From NCBI GenBank assembly GCA_039028615.1, contig JBCCHT010000016.1, positions 32,001-96,000 on the forward strand: DNA of 64,000 bases. The letters are read 5' to 3'. The notes beneath the pieces were generated by a model that saw nothing but the letters and a program-made list of their open reading frames with translations, was not told where the DNA came from and searched no databases. A program made the position numbers and the translations under genes. Every line of letters starts with the position of its first letter. The stretch's first letter is position 1. Below are positions 3,255 through 63,130 of the stretch, piece by piece. The DNA is from Myxococcota bacterium. Lineage in GTDB: Bacteria; Myxococcota_A; Polyangia; Nannocystales; Nannocystaceae.

Positions 3255-4205
3255 CTACTCGGTCTTCTTCGGGGCCCAGCACTTGTAGCCGAGCTTGGCG
3301 GTCTTCTTCGTCTTGACCTTCTTGCCGTCGGCGAAGTCGGTCTCGTTGAGCGTGATGCCCGTGACGTTGCCGACCTCGTCGTAGCGATAGTCGAAGCGGC
3401 GGTCGACCTTGCCGTCGGCGCCGTGGTCTTCGTCGATGCGGGTCACTCGACCCTCGTCGTCGTAGCGGAGCGAGACCTTCACGGCCGGACCCTCGATGGG
3501 CTCCTTGATTGTCGCCTTGCGAACGAGGCCGTCCTTGATGTCGAGCTTGATGTCGTCCTTGGCGGCGTAGAGCGGGTATCCGGGCGCGATGCCGGTGAAG
3601 GCGGGCAGGGTGATGAGCGTGATCTCCTGCTTCTTGCTCGGCTCGCTGCGCTGGTCGGTATAGGTCGCGGTGGCGAGGTTGGCCGACTCGTCGTACGTGG
3701 GCGAGATGATCGCGTCGGTGTCCTTGTCGCAGCCTTCGTCGACGCTGACCTTGTGGGTGCGCGAGTCCTTGGTCCAGAAGCGAGCGCAGACGTCGTTGCT
3801 GCCGTCGTTGTCGCCGTCGATGCGGAGCCAGCCGCTGTCGCCGTCTTTGGCGTAGCGGAAGCGCAGCACGGGACCCTTGCTCCACCGCACGTAGCAGGGG
3901 CCGTCGTAGACGGGCGTGGGCTCGGCCTCGCCACCCGTCTCGCCCCCGGTACCGCCGCTGTCGCCGACCTCGCCCACGGTGGCGACCTCGTCGGTGTCTT
4001 CGTCGGCCCAGCCCTCGGTGTCGAAGGGGTCGGCCATGGTCGTGCCCCCCGCGGCTGCGCCGGAGCTGCCCGAAGGCGCGGGCGCCTTGGTCTCGGTCTT
4101 GGTCTCCGCCTTGGGCGGCGGGGTCTTGGCGGGCGGAGGTTGTTCCGAGCCGCCGCACGCGACGGCGGCCAGGCCGAGGAGGAGGACGGGGCGGGAGATC
4201 GTCAT
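3255..4205 (-). CDS. lipoprotein with YD/RHS-like beta-hairpin repeats
   Basis: MTISRPVLLLGLAAVAC lipobox; repeats YDDEGRV and YRYDEVGNV; DxDxDG-like loops. Start overlaps the radical SAM stop (ATGA, 4202-4205). Confidence 0.7.
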   Translation of the reverse strand: MTISRPVLLLGLAAVACGGSEQPPPAKTPPPKAETKTETKAPAPSGSSGAAAGGTTMADPFDTEGWADEDTDEVATVGEVGDSGGTGGETGGEAEPTPVYDGPCYVRWSKGPVLRFRYAKDGDSGWLRIDGDNDGSNDVCARFWTKDSRTHKVSVDEGCDKDTDAIISPTYDESANLATATYTDQRSEPSKKQEITLITLPAFTGIAPGYPLYAAKDDIKLDIKDGLVRKATIKEPIEGPAVKVSLRYDDEGRVTRIDEDHGADGKVDRRFDYRYDEVGNVTGITLNETDFADGKKVKTKKTAKLGYKCWAPKKTE

Positions 4206-6004
4206 GGTTCGGGGGGCGCCTGGGTGACGGGCTGCAGTTCGTCCCAGCCGTACATCGTGGCGTACGCGCGGCGTAGGCCGAAGCAGCGGGGTTGTAGCAC
4301 ACATCGGGTGCAGGGGGCGGGTTTGACGAACTCGCCGCCGTCGTAGCCGGAGGGGAGCTGGGCCAACGAGAAGAACTCGCGGAGATCGCCGGGCACGAGG
4401 CACAGGGGCAGGCCGCACATGGAGTCGAACCCACCGACCGACAGGCCGTGGCGGCGCGCGAGCGCGAGGCCCCGTTGCAGAGCGGGGATGACGTCGCGGT
4501 AGCGGGGGACGAGCCAGGGCTGACGGGGCACGAGGTCGGTGGACATGCCAACGAACGAGACGGTGATCTCGACCTGGGGCCAGCGATCGGCGACGAGCTG
4601 CACGAAGTCGGGAAACTGCTCCCGGTTGAGCTCGCAGAACACGAAGTTGAGGTGGATCCGCACCGGGGTGGCGGCGAGGGCATCGATGCCGGCCACGCTG
4701 CGGTCGAAGGTTCCGGGCGCGTCGGTGACTCGATCGCTGACCTCGGCGGTGGCTCCGTGCAGCGAGATGAACGCGAAGTCGAGGCCGGCGTCGCACAAGG
4801 TCTGGCAATACCCGGGCGCGTCGAGGCGCGTGGCGTTGGTCTGCAGCTCCACCTCGCTGGCCCCGCGGTCCTTGCCGCGACGGATGTACTCGGGCAAGCG
4901 GGGATCGAGGGTGGGCTCGCCTCCGGAGAGCACGAGCACGCCGCCCTGGTCGGCGATCTCGTCGATGGCGGCCTCGACCTGCGCGACGGCGGGGGCCGGC
5001 AGGTGGGTCGAGACGAAGCAGAAGTGACAGGCCTGGTTGCAGCGAAAGCCGATGCGGACGACGTGGGAGGGGACGGTGCTGCCGTCGGGGCGGCGCAGGA
5101 TCTCGCGGGTGACCAGCTCGCGCTCGATCTGAGCGGTCGGCGATTCGATGACGGTCAGCCGACGGCGTAGTCGTTCATTGGTGATGGGGCGGGCGACGGT
5201 CTCGGGAAGATCCTCGGGCAGGCCGGGGCAGCGGTCGCGGACGGCACACTCGGCGCAGGCGTCCGGCCGACGGTAGCCGGAGCGCTCGGCCCCTCCGCTG
5301 GTGAGCGCGTAGATCGACGCGATGTGGCTCGGTCGCTCGAACAGGCAGGGCGGCAGGTACGTGCCCGCGTCGAGCGAGATCGGCAACGCGTGGGCCCGGG
5401 CTTGGTGAACCAGCGCTTGGGTGGTGGCCACCATCGCGTCGAGCGGGGCGAGAGCGGAGGGGTCGGGGGCGCTCCGCGGCAGGCGGATCCACAAGCGCTG
5501 CAGCTCGATGCCCGCGTCGCTGAGCTGGGCGGGGAGCAGGGGCAAGCTCTCGAGGTTGTCGCGCACGACCGGGCTGCAGCCCTCGATGTCGATGCCGGCT
5601 TCTTGCAAGGCGAGCAGACCGCGCTGGGTCGCCGCGGCGCCGCCGGGGTCACGGGTGATCGCGTCGAGTCGTGGGCCCCACGCGGGCAAGTGGACGCGTG
5701 CGGCATCGAGACCGGCATCCGCGAGCGCTCGGGCCAGGCGCGAGTCGATCAGGGCGGCGTTCGTCTCGAGCACGACGCGTGAGCCCTGGGCCGTCGCTCC
5801 GCGCACGATGTTGGGAAGATCGGGGCGCCGCGTCGGCTCGCCTCCGGTCAGCAGGACCTCGGTCCCTTGCTCTCGAGCTTCGGCGAGGCGCGCCCGAATG
5901 GCACTGGAACTCGCGATCGACACGCGCTCGTGAGGGCGCCGTGCATTGCAGAACCGACACGCCTGGTTGCAGGTCTCGTTGGTGACGACCCGGGCGACCC
6001 GCAC
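4202..6004 (-). CDS. tandem double radical SAM protein, each half with a C-terminal CxxC-x5-C auxiliary motif (Hxs-maturase-like)
   Basis: Two CxxxCxxC motifs (CNQACRFC, CNQACHFC), two GGEPT, two (E/Q)TNA, plus CAECAVRDRCPG and CTRCVLQPRCFG. Start uncertain (GTG 6004 or 6019). Confidence 0.9.
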   Translation of the reverse strand: MRVARVVTNETCNQACRFCNARRPHERVSIASSSAIRARLAEAREQGTEVLLTGGEPTRRPDLPNIVRGATAQGSRVVLETNAALIDSRLARALADAGLDAARVHLPAWGPRLDAITRDPGGAAATQRGLLALQEAGIDIEGCSPVVRDNLESLPLLPAQLSDAGIELQRLWIRLPRSAPDPSALAPLDAMVATTQALVHQARAHALPISLDAGTYLPPCLFERPSHIASIYALTSGGAERSGYRRPDACAECAVRDRCPGLPEDLPETVARPITNERLRRRLTVIESPTAQIERELVTREILRRPDGSTVPSHVVRIGFRCNQACHFCFVSTHLPAPAVAQVEAAIDEIADQGGVLVLSGGEPTLDPRLPEYIRRGKDRGASEVELQTNATRLDAPGYCQTLCDAGLDFAFISLHGATAEVSDRVTDAPGTFDRSVAGIDALAATPVRIHLNFVFCELNREQFPDFVQLVADRWPQVEITVSFVGMSTDLVPRQPWLVPRYRDVIPALQRGLALARRHGLSVGGFDSMCGLPLCLVPGDLREFFSLAQLPSGYDGGEFVKPAPCTRCVLQPRCFGLRRAYATMYGWDELQPVTQAPPEP

Positions 6005-6111
6005 CCGGTCAGGATACACGGTGGGACTCGGCACGGGAAAATCTCGCGACGCCGTTTGCAGGCCGTCGCACATTGCGGTTTGGGCCTCGAGCGCCGTGCT
6101 ACGGTCGATTC

Positions 6112-58676: not shown

Positions 58677-60176
58677 TCAGGCGCGGGGGTACAGCAGCAG
58701 CCCGGTGTGGACTGGGCGGACCGAGTCCTTGGCCTTGCCCGCCGCGACGATCTCGGTGCTCGCCAGGTCGAGGGCTCTGCCGTGGACCACCATGCGCTTG
58801 GAAGAGCCGCCGTCGAGGTTGGTGGCCTCCGTGCATCCCAGCGCCTGCAGCAGCCGAGCGACGCCGTGCAGCGTCATGCCCAAGGCGCGGTCGAAGTTGC
58901 GGCCGTCGATCGCGGCGAGGAGCAGATGACCCTCGGGGGTCGAACCGGCGGCCAGCCGCGGCAGCAGGTTTCGATCGCCGGTCTCGTCCTGGGAGAAGGT
59001 GACCGGCGGCGCCGAGCCCCAAAAATCCTCGCGACGCATGTCGAGCGCGAGCTCACCGTTGTGAAGCAGGACCGGGCCCCCGGCGATGCCCGCTCGGATG
59101 GGTCCGTGGGGCCCCGCGACCTCCGGGTAGGTGACGCGGTCTCCCGCCTGGAGCGAGAGTCCCGAGGGCAGGGGAACGACGAAGCCATTGAGGGGCACGG
59201 GCAGCAAGCGCCCGACCGCGACCACTTCGTGTCCGACGATCGCGGCGCTGGGCGTGTCGGGTCCGACGGAGGCCCGCGCCCGGTGCATCGCGCCCGTGGG
59301 CGTGAAGCGAGTCCCGTCGGGGGTCTGCATCCGTACGTGCGACAGACCCACGCGACCGATGCTCGTGGTCCCCGTGGGGCTGATGAGCACGGCGCCGCGC
59401 TCGAACACGGGCGGCGAGCGAACCTCACCGTCCTCCATGAGCAAACCGACCGGATCATGGCGGCGCGAGGGCGCTTCGATGTCCGGCTCGGAGTACAGGA
59501 AGAAGCCCCCCGAGATGCCCGCGGCGGCTCCACGGTCCTGCACGTGCGTGGCGAAGTCGATGCCTCGGGCGACGGCGGGCCGGCAGTCCTCGACGCGCAG
59601 CCGTACCGTCCCTGGGTCGACCCGCAGCAGGTTCACGTGCAGCGGTCCCAGGTCGCTCGCTCCCTCGAGCCGGGCATGGGCGAGTCCATCGGCGACCGGG
59701 GCCCACTCGACTCGACCCGCGAGATCTTCGAGCGACAGCCCCGCGCCACCGCGTCGTCGGTGCCGATGCAGCCCGGTGATGCTGTAGTAGAAATCGGCGA
59801 GCGCTCGGATGCGGATGGCTCGACCGGAGGGCGAACGCAAGATCCCTCGCGCTCGCAACCGCAGCCCGACTCGCAGGACCCGACCGGTGTCGTCGCCCAG
59901 CGCCGCGATGGACTCGTCCACGGCGCCCAGGCGCCGGGCGAACAGCTCGGCCTGGGGGCGGTCGACCTCGTGGAGGTGGTCGGCGACGGCTTCCAGCGGT
60001 TCGTTCAGGCAGTGTTGCTCCAGGGCGTCGAAGCTGTCGTCCCACGGGCCTTCGGGCGGAGCGGGAGGCCCCCCGCGCGGGTGGGGCCCGGCAAAGCAAC
60101 GGAGCACTCCGAGCACGTCGTCGCTCAGTCCGCGACTTCGGCCGAACTCCATCGCGACCTCGAGCCAGCTCGGCAC
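58677..60176 (-). CDS. phosphodiester glycosidase (NAGPA) family protein with N-terminal extension
   Basis: SGGFF, GGPVLL, PRLAAG, IDGR...GMTL, NLDGGSS. Confidence 0.85.
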   Translation of the reverse strand: MPSWLEVAMEFGRSRGLSDDVLGVLRCFAGPHPRGGPPAPPEGPWDDSFDALEQHCLNEPLEAVADHLHEVDRPQAELFARRLGAVDESIAALGDDTGRVLRVGLRLRARGILRSPSGRAIRIRALADFYYSITGLHRHRRRGGAGLSLEDLAGRVEWAPVADGLAHARLEGASDLGPLHVNLLRVDPGTVRLRVEDCRPAVARGIDFATHVQDRGAAAGISGGFFLYSEPDIEAPSRRHDPVGLLMEDGEVRSPPVFERGAVLISPTGTTSIGRVGLSHVRMQTPDGTRFTPTGAMHRARASVGPDTPSAAIVGHEVVAVGRLLPVPLNGFVVPLPSGLSLQAGDRVTYPEVAGPHGPIRAGIAGGPVLLHNGELALDMRREDFWGSAPPVTFSQDETGDRNLLPRLAAGSTPEGHLLLAAIDGRNFDRALGMTLHGVARLLQALGCTEATNLDGGSSKRMVVHGRALDLASTEIVAAGKAKDSVRPVHTGLLLYPRA

Positions 60177-60247
60177 GGGGGCAGCTTGTCACCGAGGCGG
60201 TCGAGGAGTCGATGTCGCGGTGCGCGCGTGATAGGCTCACGCCCCGC

Positions 60248-60466
60248 ATGAAGGAGCTACGGTTCCATCGCGACCTGTACCCGGGGACGGCGCTCGACGC
60301 CGCGATCAACACCTACGCGTCGTGGGCCGAGATCCAGCGCGAAGAATCGAAGACCCATTGGATCGTAAAGATCTCGGCCGGGAGCACGGCCGCCGAGCGG
60401 CAGATCGCAGGAGAGCTGGCCAACTACGCGTTGGGCCTCACCGTTCGCGAGGGCGCGCCGACATGA
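60248..60466 (+). CDS. HxsD-like His-Xaa-Ser system accessory protein
   Basis: 72 aa, ELRFHRDLY...ALDAA..Y......GELANYAL, recalled as the HxsD pattern; directly upstream of the HxS-repeat gene. Confidence 0.75.
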   Translation: MKELRFHRDLYPGTALDAAINTYASWAEIQREESKTHWIVKISAGSTAAERQIAGELANYALGLTVREGAPT

Positions 60467-60562
60467 GGGCAGCCCCTACGTCGCCTCCATGTAGAGAATT
60501 ACGCGGGCGCAGGTCGCGGACGCGCACAAACGAGCGAACTCGCGCCAGCGACGTTTTCGTTT

Positions 60563-60571
60563 TGGTATGAT
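60563..60571 (+). promoter_or_regulatory. possible extended -10 promoter for the HxS precursor gene
   Basis: TGGTATGAT (TGn-TATGAT) in a T-rich patch ending 22 nt before ATG 60594. Confidence 0.35.
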
Positions 60572-60593
60572 TCGGGCTCGCGGAGATTGAGGC

Positions 60594-60893
60594 ATGACGC
60601 AGGACAAACGCGCTCCTGATGAGAAAAAGGGAACCCAGGACCTCTCCGGGTTGCCTTCATTTTCCCGAGATCCCGCGGCCATGTTGAGTGGGTCGCAACG
60701 ATCCATCTCGCAAAAAGCCAAAGATCACGCGGACGAAAGCTCTCATTTTCCCCTGGGAGAGCAGGACGGCCCCTTGGCTGCGCCAACGCATTGTTCGCAC
60801 GGAAGTCATGGCTCTCATGGAAGCCATGGCAGTCACGGAAGTCATGGAAGCCATGGCAGTCACGGAAGTCATGGTTCCCATGGCAGCTGGTAG
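60594..60893 (+). CDS. His-Xaa-Ser repeat protein (HxsA-like RiPP precursor)
   Basis: 65-aa leader then HCS-(HGS)10-W-stop; RBS GAGG; third codon positions vary while H-G-S is conserved. Confidence 0.88.
   Translation: MTQDKRAPDEKKGTQDLSGLPSFSRDPAAMLSGSQRSISQKAKDHADESSHFPLGEQDGPLAAPTHCSHGSHGSHGSHGSHGSHGSHGSHGSHGSHGSW
60789..60887 (+). repeat. 9-bp tandem repeat, 11 units, encoding H-x-S
   Basis: CA(C/T)-GGN-(AG(C/T)/TCN) units, including an exact 27-bp duplication catggaagccatggcagtcacggaagt. Confidence 0.9.
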
Positions 60894-60922
60894 CTCGTCC
60901 GGTTGGGGCTGACCCACGCCAC

Positions 60923-63130
60923 ATGACCGAGTTCAATCCACCCAACCGACGTCGCACCGATGGCGACGATCTGGTCGAGCTCACCTCCACGAGCTCGGGG
61001 TCGGCTTCGCATGCCCGGCGTCATGTTCCGCCCGAGCCCGAGCGACGATCGCTTCGCCTGCTCATGGTGGGGTCCAAGCCGGAGGACCACAAACGCATCG
61101 TCGAGATGATGCGCAAGGTCGGCAGCCCGCTGGTGTCCGTGGACCACGCGGCCGACGATGCATTGGCCGTCGAGGCCTTGCGTTCGGCGCACTACGACGC
61201 GGTCATCTATCTCGATCGCGAAGATCGACAGAGCTGGTCCCGCTTCGTTCGCGACCGCCGAATCCCCCAGCTTCCCATCCTCTACGTCGACCACGACGGC
61301 CGCCCCATGACCCGGGCCCTGCGACGCTCGCAGGCGCTGCACGAGGGCGCGGCGGTCTACCTCGTCGACGAGGAACTCACCGGGCCTTTGCTCGAGACGG
61401 CCATCCACGGCGCGCTCGAGCACGCCCGGCTACAAAAGGCGATCAACGAGGTCCAGGAGCGCTTCGCCCTGGCCGTACGCGGCTCCAACGACGGCGTGTG
61501 GGAGTGGATGCTCGACTCGGGCGAGATGCACTTCTCTCGGCGCTGGCGCGAGCTGCTGGGCTACGGCGTCGATGAGCTCAAGGGCTCGGCCGAGGAGTGG
61601 TTCGACCGCGTGCACCCGGCCGACCTCATGGGGCTGCGGGCCGACCTCGACAACCACCTGGCGGGGCACAAGGCCTTCCACGAGTTCGAGCATCGCCTGC
61701 GGGCCAGCGACGGCACCTACCGCTGGGTCATCAGCCGCGGCGTGGTCCAGCGCGATGCCGACGGCAGCCCCGTGCGCATGGCGGGCTCGCTCACCGACAC
61801 CTCGAACTATCGGCTGCGCGAGCAGAAGCTGCTCGAAGAGAGCCGCCAGGACCCGCTCACCAACCTCCCGCGCCGCGAGCCCTTCCTCGAGCGCCTGCGC
61901 AACGCCATCGACCTGGCCAACGCCTACGACGACTACTCGTTCACGGTGATGATGGTCGACGTCGATCGCTTCCGCTGGCTGGCCGACAGCATCGGCCATA
62001 GGGCGGCGGAGACGATGCTGTCGATCCTGGCCCGGCGCCTGGTCGCCAGCGTGCGCCCCGGAGACACCGTCAGCCGCTTCGGCGGGGACAAGTTCGCGGT
62101 GCTGCTCGAGAACGTCGACGACCTCGAGCAGGGGGCGCTCATCGCCGAGCGGATCCGTCGCTCGGTCAGCGAGCCCTTCGAGGTCGAAGGCCAGACCGTC
62201 TACACCACGGTGAGCATCGGCCTGACCACAAGCCGCCGCGGGTACCAGGACGCCGAGGACGTCATCAACGACGTCGGCGCGGCCGCGCACAGTGCCAAGG
62301 AAGACGGCCACGACCGCCTGCGGATCTTCGAGACCAAGATGCGCGACGACGCCTTGTCGAGCCTGCGCATGGAGGTCGCGCTGCGCCAGGCGGTCGAGCG
62401 CAACGAGTTCGAGCTTCGCTACCAGCCCATCGTGGCGCTCAGCTCGGGCAAGCTCGCCGGGTTCGAGGCGCTGGTCCGCTGGCGTCACCCTCGACGCGAC
62501 CTGGTCAGCCCCGCCGAGTTCATTCCCATCGCCGAGCAGACCGGGCTCATCGTGCCGCTGGGGCGCTGGGTGCTGCGCGAGGCGGTACGACAGCTGGCCG
62601 ACTGGACCGCGATGCTGCCCAAGGGGCGCCGCCTCACCATGGCGGTGAACCTCAGCGGCCGCCAGGTGGCCGACCCGCGGCTGCTCGAAGAAATCTACTC
62701 GCTCGTCGACGAGCACCAGCTCGGCAAGGGGGCGCTCAAGCTCGAGCTCACCGAGAGCGTGCTGGTGAAGAACGCCGACGTCGTGCAGCGCTTCATCACC
62801 GATCTCAAGACCCGGGGCGTGCACCTGTGGGTCGACGACTTCGGCACCGGCTACTCGTCGCTGAGCTACCTGCACCGATTCCCCGTCGACGGGCTGAAGA
62901 TCGACAAGGCCTTCATCGACGCGCTCGACGGCTCCGACAAGAGCGCGGCCATGGTCCGCACCATCCTCAGCCTCGCCCAGAACCTCGAGGTCGAGGCCAT
63001 CGCCGAGGGCATCGAAGAGCACGTGCAGGCCGACCAGCTGCGCTCGTTGGGCTGCGTGTCGGGGCAGGGCTACTTGTTCAGTAAGCCGATCCCCGCCACC
63101 GAGGTCGAGACGCTCCTCGCCGAAGGCTGA
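60923..63130 (+). CDS. REC-like/PAS/degenerate GGDEF/EAL c-di-GMP phosphodiesterase
   Basis: GSNDGVWEW PAS domain, DPLTNLP, SRFGGDKF, FEALVRW, DDFGTGYSSL, AEGIE, GQGYLFSKP. Confidence 0.92.
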   Translation: MTEFNPPNRRRTDGDDLVELTSTSSGSASHARRHVPPEPERRSLRLLMVGSKPEDHKRIVEMMRKVGSPLVSVDHAADDALAVEALRSAHYDAVIYLDREDRQSWSRFVRDRRIPQLPILYVDHDGRPMTRALRRSQALHEGAAVYLVDEELTGPLLETAIHGALEHARLQKAINEVQERFALAVRGSNDGVWEWMLDSGEMHFSRRWRELLGYGVDELKGSAEEWFDRVHPADLMGLRADLDNHLAGHKAFHEFEHRLRASDGTYRWVISRGVVQRDADGSPVRMAGSLTDTSNYRLREQKLLEESRQDPLTNLPRREPFLERLRNAIDLANAYDDYSFTVMMVDVDRFRWLADSIGHRAAETMLSILARRLVASVRPGDTVSRFGGDKFAVLLENVDDLEQGALIAERIRRSVSEPFEVEGQTVYTTVSIGLTTSRRGYQDAEDVINDVGAAAHSAKEDGHDRLRIFETKMRDDALSSLRMEVALRQAVERNEFELRYQPIVALSSGKLAGFEALVRWRHPRRDLVSPAEFIPIAEQTGLIVPLGRWVLREAVRQLADWTAMLPKGRRLTMAVNLSGRQVADPRLLEEIYSLVDEHQLGKGALKLELTESVLVKNADVVQRFITDLKTRGVHLWVDDFGTGYSSLSYLHRFPVDGLKIDKAFIDALDGSDKSAAMVRTILSLAQNLEVEAIAEGIEEHVQADQLRSLGCVSGQGYLFSKPIPATEVETLLAEG

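Follow-up and report, generated by a model that had tools for sequence, protein, structure and literature searches.

The window analysed in this study is a stretch of 64,000 nucleotides from a Myxococcota bacterium of the family Nannocystaceae (GCA_039028615.1, contig JBCCHT010000016.1, positions 32,001 to 96,000; the contig is called C16 below). Two small genes of a His-Xaa-Ser (Hxs) system lie on its plus strand. The HxsD-like gene (60248..60466) starts at ATG 60248 and encodes 72 amino acids plus a stop. It is followed by a spacer of 127 nucleotides (60467..60593, plus strand), in which GGAG/GAGG motifs were read from the sequence just 5′ of the next start codon. The HxsA4 precursor gene begins at ATG 60594, stops at 60893 and encodes 99 amino acids. 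Its hydrophilic leader has 65 codons (60594..60788), and its core (60789..60893) consists of one HCS triplet, ten HGS triplets, a terminal Trp and the stop. The 11 H-x-S triplets are the presumed target of a radical S-adenosylmethionine (radical-SAM) enzyme. The first-pass annotation of the window had described this open reading frame (ORF) with its leader, its 11 triplets and its last Trp, and all of them were found where it had placed them. By profile matches, both genes are members of catalogued NCBIfam families and not a novel kind of element. What is new here is the context, in which the HxsD-like/HxsA4 pair stands alone at a site that holds a full cassette in two genomes of the same family.

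The precursor matched the NCBIfam model NF038313 (HxsA4) with 68.5 bits (cut-off 55, E 7.2e-19), and the alignment covered residues 20–99 and model positions 2–93 of 93. It failed the HxsA, HxsA2 and HxsA3 models in the same profile comparison. The hidden Markov model check suggested with the first-pass annotation thus identified the H-x-S peptide as an HxsA4-type precursor. The alignment of 15 leaders showed a conserved L-P-S-F motif, a helix-like Q-R-x-I-S-x-K/R-A motif and an A-P-T motif ahead of the core, with M1, P21 and L31 invariant. All 15 aligned family members end in Trp after 8–27 repeats. The core has a single Cys, and three of the 15 relatives have Ala or Gly in its place; a Cys-based thioether was rejected as the main modification for this reason.

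The codons of the triplets are mixed: His is written as CAT eight times and CAC three times, Gly as GGA, GGC or GGT, and Ser as AGT, AGC, TCT, TCC or TCG. Tandem Repeats Finder reported a period-9 array of 8.2 copies (72% matches) and a younger period-27 sub-repeat of 2.7 copies (93%). A six-frame scan of the 12.27-Mb host genome found at least four consecutive H-x-S triplets in only two ORFs, namely the window ORF and a paralogue on contig C17. Since the scan yielded only these two ORFs and both window ORFs pass curated cut-offs, the H-x-S run is beyond chance.

The repeat codons were compared with those of the orthologues in G210 and G270, the two system-carrying genomes of the same family as the window. 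The core differs from G210 in 19 of 34 codons and from G270 in 24 of 34, with no change of amino acid at any of them. Of all single-base changes in the core stretch, only some 20% would be silent. Because 19 of 19 and 24 of 24 codon differences are silent, the repeat peptide is under protein-level selection, as the first-pass annotation had concluded from the synonymous variation among the triplets. A large share of them reflects a move to CAT, GGA and AGT codons that is particular to the window lineage.

The HxsD-like protein matched the NCBIfam model NF038315 (HxsD-like protein) with 71.9 bits (cut-off 41) over model positions 1–62 of 62. The match to the model of HxsD proper (TIGR03976) was weak, at 16.4 bits and below the cut-off of 50. 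In an hhalign comparison, residues 2–72 aligned to residues 22–101 of the long HxsD (probability 96.8%, E 2.7e-10), which bears out the earlier claim that the 72-residue protein is related to HxsD. Judged by this alignment, the HxsD-like protein is a short paralogue of HxsD that corresponds to its N-terminal half, and the conserved acidic C-terminal tail of HxsD is absent from it. The start codon was set from an alignment of 26 sequences, in which Y11, N59 and L62 are invariant; the window protein keeps all three. The GC content at third codon positions (GC3) of the gene is 0.85, which is usual for genes of the host genome.

The AlphaFold2 model of the HxsD-like protein, built from the 26-sequence alignment, predicted a beta-alpha-beta-beta-alpha order with a pLDDT (predicted local distance difference test) of 95.9. 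A Foldseek search of this model against the PDB returned nothing at E <= 0.001. The best matches were designed beta-sheet heterodimers and Pcc1 (E 0.03–0.07, template-modelling score 0.5–0.63); these were too weak for a fold family to be named. The HxsD profile gave no match below E 0.9 among PDB sequences, and Pfam gave no family above its cut-off on the 72- or the 99-residue protein. A complex prediction of the HxsD-like protein with the HxsA4 leader (alignments A1 and A2) scored 0.02 (mark 0.32); it was run without controls and was counted neither way.

A consensus scan of positions 59900–61200 found no promoter-like (sigma-70-like) site and no terminator on the plus strand. One terminator-like site was found on the minus strand, at chance level. 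No signal peptide and no export gene were found at the locus. Three overlapping or opposite ORFs (60499–60990 minus, 60657–60917 minus and 60688–60912 plus) were rejected as real genes, as the plus-strand pair matches curated families end to end.

Directly 3′ of the pair and outside the system lies a gene for a PAS-GGDEF-EAL protein (60923..63130, plus strand), with Pfam scores of 256 bits for EAL, 117.5 for GGDEF and 79.4 for PAS_3. Its orthologues (65–66% identity, about 690 amino acids) directly follow the Hxs cassette in G210 and G270. An orthologue of the window gene 67387–67974 is also found after the cassette in both genomes (51–54% identity over 121 amino acids). The HxsA4 of both genomes has the same A-A-P-T-H-C-S junction and the same 11 repeats as the window gene. 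Since the downstream orthologues, the HxsA4 junction and the repeat number agree, the window locus is the orthologous site. In G210 and G270 this site holds a full cassette of a radical-SAM–methyltransferase, HxsD, HxsD-like, HxsB, HxsA4 and HxsC4. By this comparison, the window locus retains HxsD-like and HxsA4, and HxsD, HxsB, HxsC4 and the upstream radical-SAM–methyltransferase have been lost from it. No trace of HxsD or HxsB was detected there, and no HxsD match was found within C16:82001–102000.

The usual arrangement was examined in 29 HxsD-like loci sampled with 1.5-kb flanks and in 18 larger loci that were also fetched. The long HxsD was directly upstream of HxsD-like in 26 of the 29 loci, and HxsB was directly downstream in 21. 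An HxS-repeat gene directly followed HxsD-like in only one locus (G360). Among the larger loci, 14 of 18 hold an HxsA4-type ORF that ends in Trp and has 8–17 repeats. The common gene order in relatives is HxsD, HxsD-like, HxsB, HxsA4. HxsC4 directly follows HxsA4 in G210, G380 and G240 (600–612 bits, cut-off 500), and a radical-SAM–methyltransferase fusion often precedes the cassette. The models that define this cassette are TIGR03976 (HxsD), NF038315 (HxsD-like), TIGR03978 (HxsB), NF038313 (HxsA4) and NF038332 (HxsC4). Set beside it, the window pair passes the cut-offs, has the same leader motifs, H-C-S core start, (HGS)n run and Trp, and is syntenic with G210 and G270. HxsB and HxsD are present elsewhere in its genome. 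It differs in that the pair is alone, with no HxsD upstream, no HxsB between the two genes and no HxsC4 found in the assembly, and in the atypical codon usage of its HxsA4.

The host assembly is a draft, metagenome-derived genome of 94 contigs with 96.7% completeness. Its size of 12 Mb, its GC content of 68% and a match to the myxobacterial-type Cys-rich repeat model TIGR02232 point to Myxococcota. No radical-SAM gene is adjacent to the pair, as first noted; the nearest is the window gene 4202–6073, which lies 54 kb away. A genome-wide inventory found HxsB only on other contigs, which agrees with the dispersed system first proposed. One HxsB lies at C5:246131–247933 (568 bits) and the other at C17:51179–52783 (570 bits), both above the cut-off of 370. 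They share 65% identity and are mutual closest relatives in a rapidly built LG+G4 tree with 37 HxsB sequences (Shimodaira–Hasegawa-like approximate likelihood ratio test 100). Each is preceded by an HxsD. The one on C5 (C5:247627–248121) scored 49.7 bits against the cut-off of 50, the one on C17 (C17:52747–53175) scored 31.8 bits, and both are supported by tblastn.

The C5 segment (C5:243238–248121) contains enzymes only, in the form of an HxsC-like radical-SAM protein, a LuxR-type response regulator, HxsB and HxsD. Neither an HxsD-like nor an HxS-repeat gene was found near it. Its gene content is the complement of that of the window locus. The HxsC-like protein has 313 amino acids and is encoded 2 kb from HxsB, and its orthologues (54–59% identity) occur near the cassettes of four relatives. 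Within 7 kb of the C17 HxsB lie a radical-SAM–methyltransferase, an alpha-ketoglutarate (aKG)-HExxH peptide hydroxylase, a third HxsD, a second HxsD-like gene and a second HxsA4. The core of this HxsA4 is HAS, (HGS)26 and Trp, giving 27 repeats. These genes belong to a 67-kb island (C17:42000–111000) that holds 18 of the 63 Radical_SAM domain matches of the genome. The island also encodes a B12–radical-SAM protein, two PhyH dioxygenases, a cupin/JmjC-like protein and a CAAX-type protease.

The first-pass annotation had defined Hxs systems by H-x-S peptides with paired radical-SAM enzymes. This pairing did not hold for the present subfamily. None of 29 HxsC matches in the genome passed the cut-off (best 80 bits against 267.9). 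HxsC4 (NF038332) was not found in the assembly, where the best profile match was 106 bits against a cut-off of 500 and tblastn with the G210 protein gave at most 31% identity. In the wider phylum, HxsC4 passes its cut-off in only 22 of 401 sampled genomes.

The co-occurrence of the families was tabulated by hand from the genome lists of these 401 sampled genomes of the window's phylum. HxsD-like passed the cut-off in 132 genomes, HxsA4 in 125 and HxsB in 141. At thresholds of E <= 1e-9 for HxsA4 and E <= 1e-80 for HxsB, HxsB was present in 126 of 131 HxsA4 holders. It was also present in 135 of 137 HxsD-like holders, and all three families occurred together in 124 of the 401 genomes. The association is strong, but it is not a statistic, because relatedness makes the genomes non-independent. 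Of the 19 same-class genomes with the triad, 15 also have HxsC4; like the window genome, G105, G285 and G360 lack it.

Split arrangements were also found outside the window genome. In G360, HxsD, HxsD-like and HxsA4 are on one contig and HxsB is on another, and copies in G165 and G220 are unlinked. Family f23 includes at least four genomes (G009, G052, G094 and G174) in which HxsD-like and HxsB are adjacent and HxsA4 is on a separate contig. Each of the three families is present in 29 of 29 genomes of f23. The f23 layout, with HxsD-like beside HxsB and HxsA4 apart, is another way of splitting the system than that of the window genome.

Taken together, we consider it likely that the pair represents the substrate half of an HxsA4-type His-Xaa-Ser system that has been split, its radical-SAM enzyme genes having moved to other parts of the genome; maturation in trans by HxsB is proposed for it. 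Because the system is dispersed, maturation by a radical-SAM enzyme, if it occurs, must act in trans. We propose that the 99-residue peptide is made and that its 65-residue leader would be recognised by HxsB, a SPASM-type radical-SAM peptide maturase. HxsB would act either from C5, where HxsD–HxsB and a nearby HxsC-like radical-SAM protein are encoded, or from C17. The HxsD-like protein, together with HxsD, may serve as an adaptor between peptide and enzyme, by analogy with the HxsC–HxsD complex of E. coli. HxsB would then modify the H-G-S units, and the most plausible modification would be a radical-mediated His–Ser crosslink within each triplet. The predicted product is a rigid, His-rich, multiply cyclised peptide ending in Trp. 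For its role we can only guess at an envelope-located anti-phage barrier like that of canonical HxsA, or at metal binding.

No paper on the HxsA4 subtype was found in the literature searched. The canonical hxsD-hxsB-hxsC-hxsA system of Pseudomonadota has been shown to be an anti-phage system that blocks the entry of phage DNA (Li et al., Nat Commun 2026, PMC13128918). According to that article, HxsA functions in the periplasm, is processed at its N terminus and has its final HxS repeat altered by +8 Da. It further reports that E. coli HxsD binds HxsC, that the modification within an HxS repeat depends on a radical-SAM enzyme and that 99.7% of HXS systems occur in Pseudomonadota. The first-pass annotation had regarded both the product and the role of Hxs systems as unsettled. 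For the role of the canonical system this no longer stands; its chemistry is still unsolved (PMC13128918). In passages of another article, HxsB and HxsC are mentioned only as predicted maturases, citing Haft and Basu (PMC9062424).

The window system resembles the canonical one in having an HxsB-family radical-SAM protein, a small protein of the HxsD type and a substrate in which H-x-S repeats stand in tandem; in the canonical case, this substrate is modified within a repeat. It is unlike it in several respects. The window peptide fails the HxsA model TIGR03979 (16.7 bits against 121.65), and no Pfam family over cut-off marks a peptidoglycan-binding domain on it. It has 11 uniform HGS-type repeats, whereas HxsA has five basic repeats. 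The host genome has HxsB twice over the cut-off but no HxsC, and the gene order and the phylum also differ. PADLOC 2023 had no model matching the window pair or HxsD, and gave weak viperin-type radical-SAM matches for HxsB and for the 4202–6073 protein.

Two further groups of radical-SAM systems were compared. Among the enzymes described in PMC11499958, HaaB, YhhB and HtkB form a bond between His-C2 and the residue-3 C-beta in HAA, HNR and HTK motifs, respectively. Since such His cyclophanes are known on these motifs, a His-x-Ser ring is chemically plausible. The triceptides, three-residue cyclophane peptides made by radical-SAM/SPASM enzymes, share with the window system a leader, repeated aromatic-x-x triplets with His first and a SPASM-type radical-SAM partner. 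They are unlike it in that position 3 is Ser in HxsA4 and in that the HxsB crosslink is putative.

The nearest solved chain to HxsB is 5wgg_A, annotated as "Radical SAM domain protein" (E 2.1e-18, residues 200–537), which we take to be CteB. The next-best NCBIfam matches of HxsB are the SCIFF, nif11 and PapB radical-SAM/SPASM maturases (98–126 bits against cut-offs of 340–519). HxsB thus shares its best solved match and some of its next-best models with the SCIFF-type thioether SPASM maturases. It falls far below their cut-offs, and the HxsA4 core has one Cys.

Several observations weigh against the proposed maturation of the peptide by HxsB. HxsB scored 45–49 bits on the models of the cyclophane synthases YhhB, GrrM/OscB and AmcB (cut-offs 310–445), which places it outside the triceptide enzyme families. 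The His–Ser crosslink is suggested by analogy only. The +8 Da of E. coli HxsA (PMC13128918) does not match a plain crosslink, which would give −2 Da. Should this class require HxsC4, the peptide would be only partly matured here. The pairing in trans also depends on correct binning of the 94-contig assembly; in favour of the pairing, C5, C16 and C17 are compositionally indistinguishable (GC 0.682–0.684, tetranucleotide correlation 0.999). A search for sequencing runs found no RNA run among the holders and one DNA run, which may be the source of the assembly.

The loss of HxsD, HxsB and HxsC4 from the locus and the codon composition of HxsA4 also count against the proposal. The leader of the gene has a GC3 of 0.62 and its repeats have 0.36, the lowest of the 15 genes compared, while the repeats of the 14 relatives range from 0.64 to 1.00 and the neighbouring genes are at about 0.85–0.9. 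The pair region has a GC content of 0.608, against 0.688 for the window. The low GC3 results from the lineage's shift to CAT, GGA and AGT codons. It would fit relaxed selection on a remnant, that is, a pair left unused or unmatured after the cassette broke up and drifting to loss while the system on C17 works. The complete-looking second set on C17 and the intact cassettes of the two same-family genomes point the same way. We regard such decay as improbable, as neither ORF is interrupted or truncated relative to its model and the HxsD-like gene retains its invariant residues and a normal GC3. The synonymous repeat differences include the lineage-specific A/T-ending changes, and split layouts recur in other genomes. 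The low GC3 is the strongest argument for the remnant reading; we read it as weak codon selection, perhaps with low expression, while the protein appears strictly preserved.

The identity of the maturase was also weighed. The first-pass annotation had proposed the radical-SAM protein at 4202–6004 as an example of a trans maturase, and the comparisons gave this no support. The gene (4202..6073, minus strand) encodes 623 amino acids with two tandem radical-SAM domains, seen as Radical_SAM matches in two stretches (135.9 bits). It holds the only two of the 63 Radical_SAM matches of the genome that lie on the window contig. Its best NCBIfam matches are HxsC4 and HxsC, and its closest paralogue (44% identity) is C17:80163–81998, in the island that contains the second HxsA4. 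The protein might mature the peptide alone or with its relatives from the C17 island, instead of HxsB. Its scores are far below the cut-offs (132.7 bits against 500 for HxsC4 and 110.4 against 267.9 for HxsC), and it stands alone, 54 kb from the pair, among unrelated genes such as a GH114 glycosidase and lipoprotein-like genes. No close orthologue was found near Hxs cassettes in 57 fetched stretches, which include the genome's own regions (at most 35% identity, partial). Across the phylum, it is HxsB whose distribution follows that of HxsA4, as in the 126 of 131 holders above. By these sequence comparisons nothing links the 4202–6073 protein to the pair; we consider its action on the peptide highly unlikely, and HxsB is the better-supported candidate.

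The peptide could also work unmodified, as a His-rich peptide for metal binding or buffering, in which case the radical-SAM link seen in relatives would be unneeded here. It has 11 His among 34 core residues, it is conserved, and the locus has no maturase. The long conserved leader with its invariant positions is typical of precursors recognised by enzymes, the HxsD-like partner has been kept, and the co-occurrence with HxsB is near-perfect. The locus also has neither a signal peptide nor an export gene, and we find this explanation highly unlikely.

Starting from HxsB-dependent maturation, we speculate further, and with considerable doubt, that HxsA4 peptides may be "poly-triceptides". Each H-G-S would be closed into a His-to-Ser macrocycle, giving 8 to 27 consecutive three-residue rings with a Trp cap, and a modular enzyme module (HxsD–HxsB) would serve substrate modules (HxsD-like–HxsA4) in trans. 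If true, the poly-triceptide would be an architecture of ribosomally synthesised and post-translationally modified peptides without earlier description. The modularity would explain the repeated splitting across lineages and the two substrates of 11 and 27 repeats in this genome. In predatory-type bacteria, the product might then bar phage DNA at the envelope, as HxsA does, or be a polymer that binds metal.

Within the phylum, the HxsA4 subtype occurs widely, passing its cut-off in 125 of the 401 genomes sampled, and HxsB is the one enzyme that follows its distribution there. The chemistry is unsolved for every His-Xaa-Ser system, and in E. coli just the +8 Da has been mapped (PMC13128918). 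For mass spectrometry and nuclear magnetic resonance, the short peptide with its perfectly uniform (HGS)10 core offers a much cleaner substrate than the 214-residue E. coli effector. The host genome, with two HxsB, two precursors (11 and 27 repeats), three HxsD and no HxsC4, is a natural test of trans-action and specificity.

On the other side of the pair, the minus-strand gene 58677–60176 encodes a 499-residue protein whose C-terminal part matches the NAGPA phosphodiester-glycosidase domain (80.4 bits). No orthologue of it was found beside the G210 or G270 cassettes within the stretches fetched. It is divergent from the HxsD-like gene, with 71 nucleotides between the longest ORFs.

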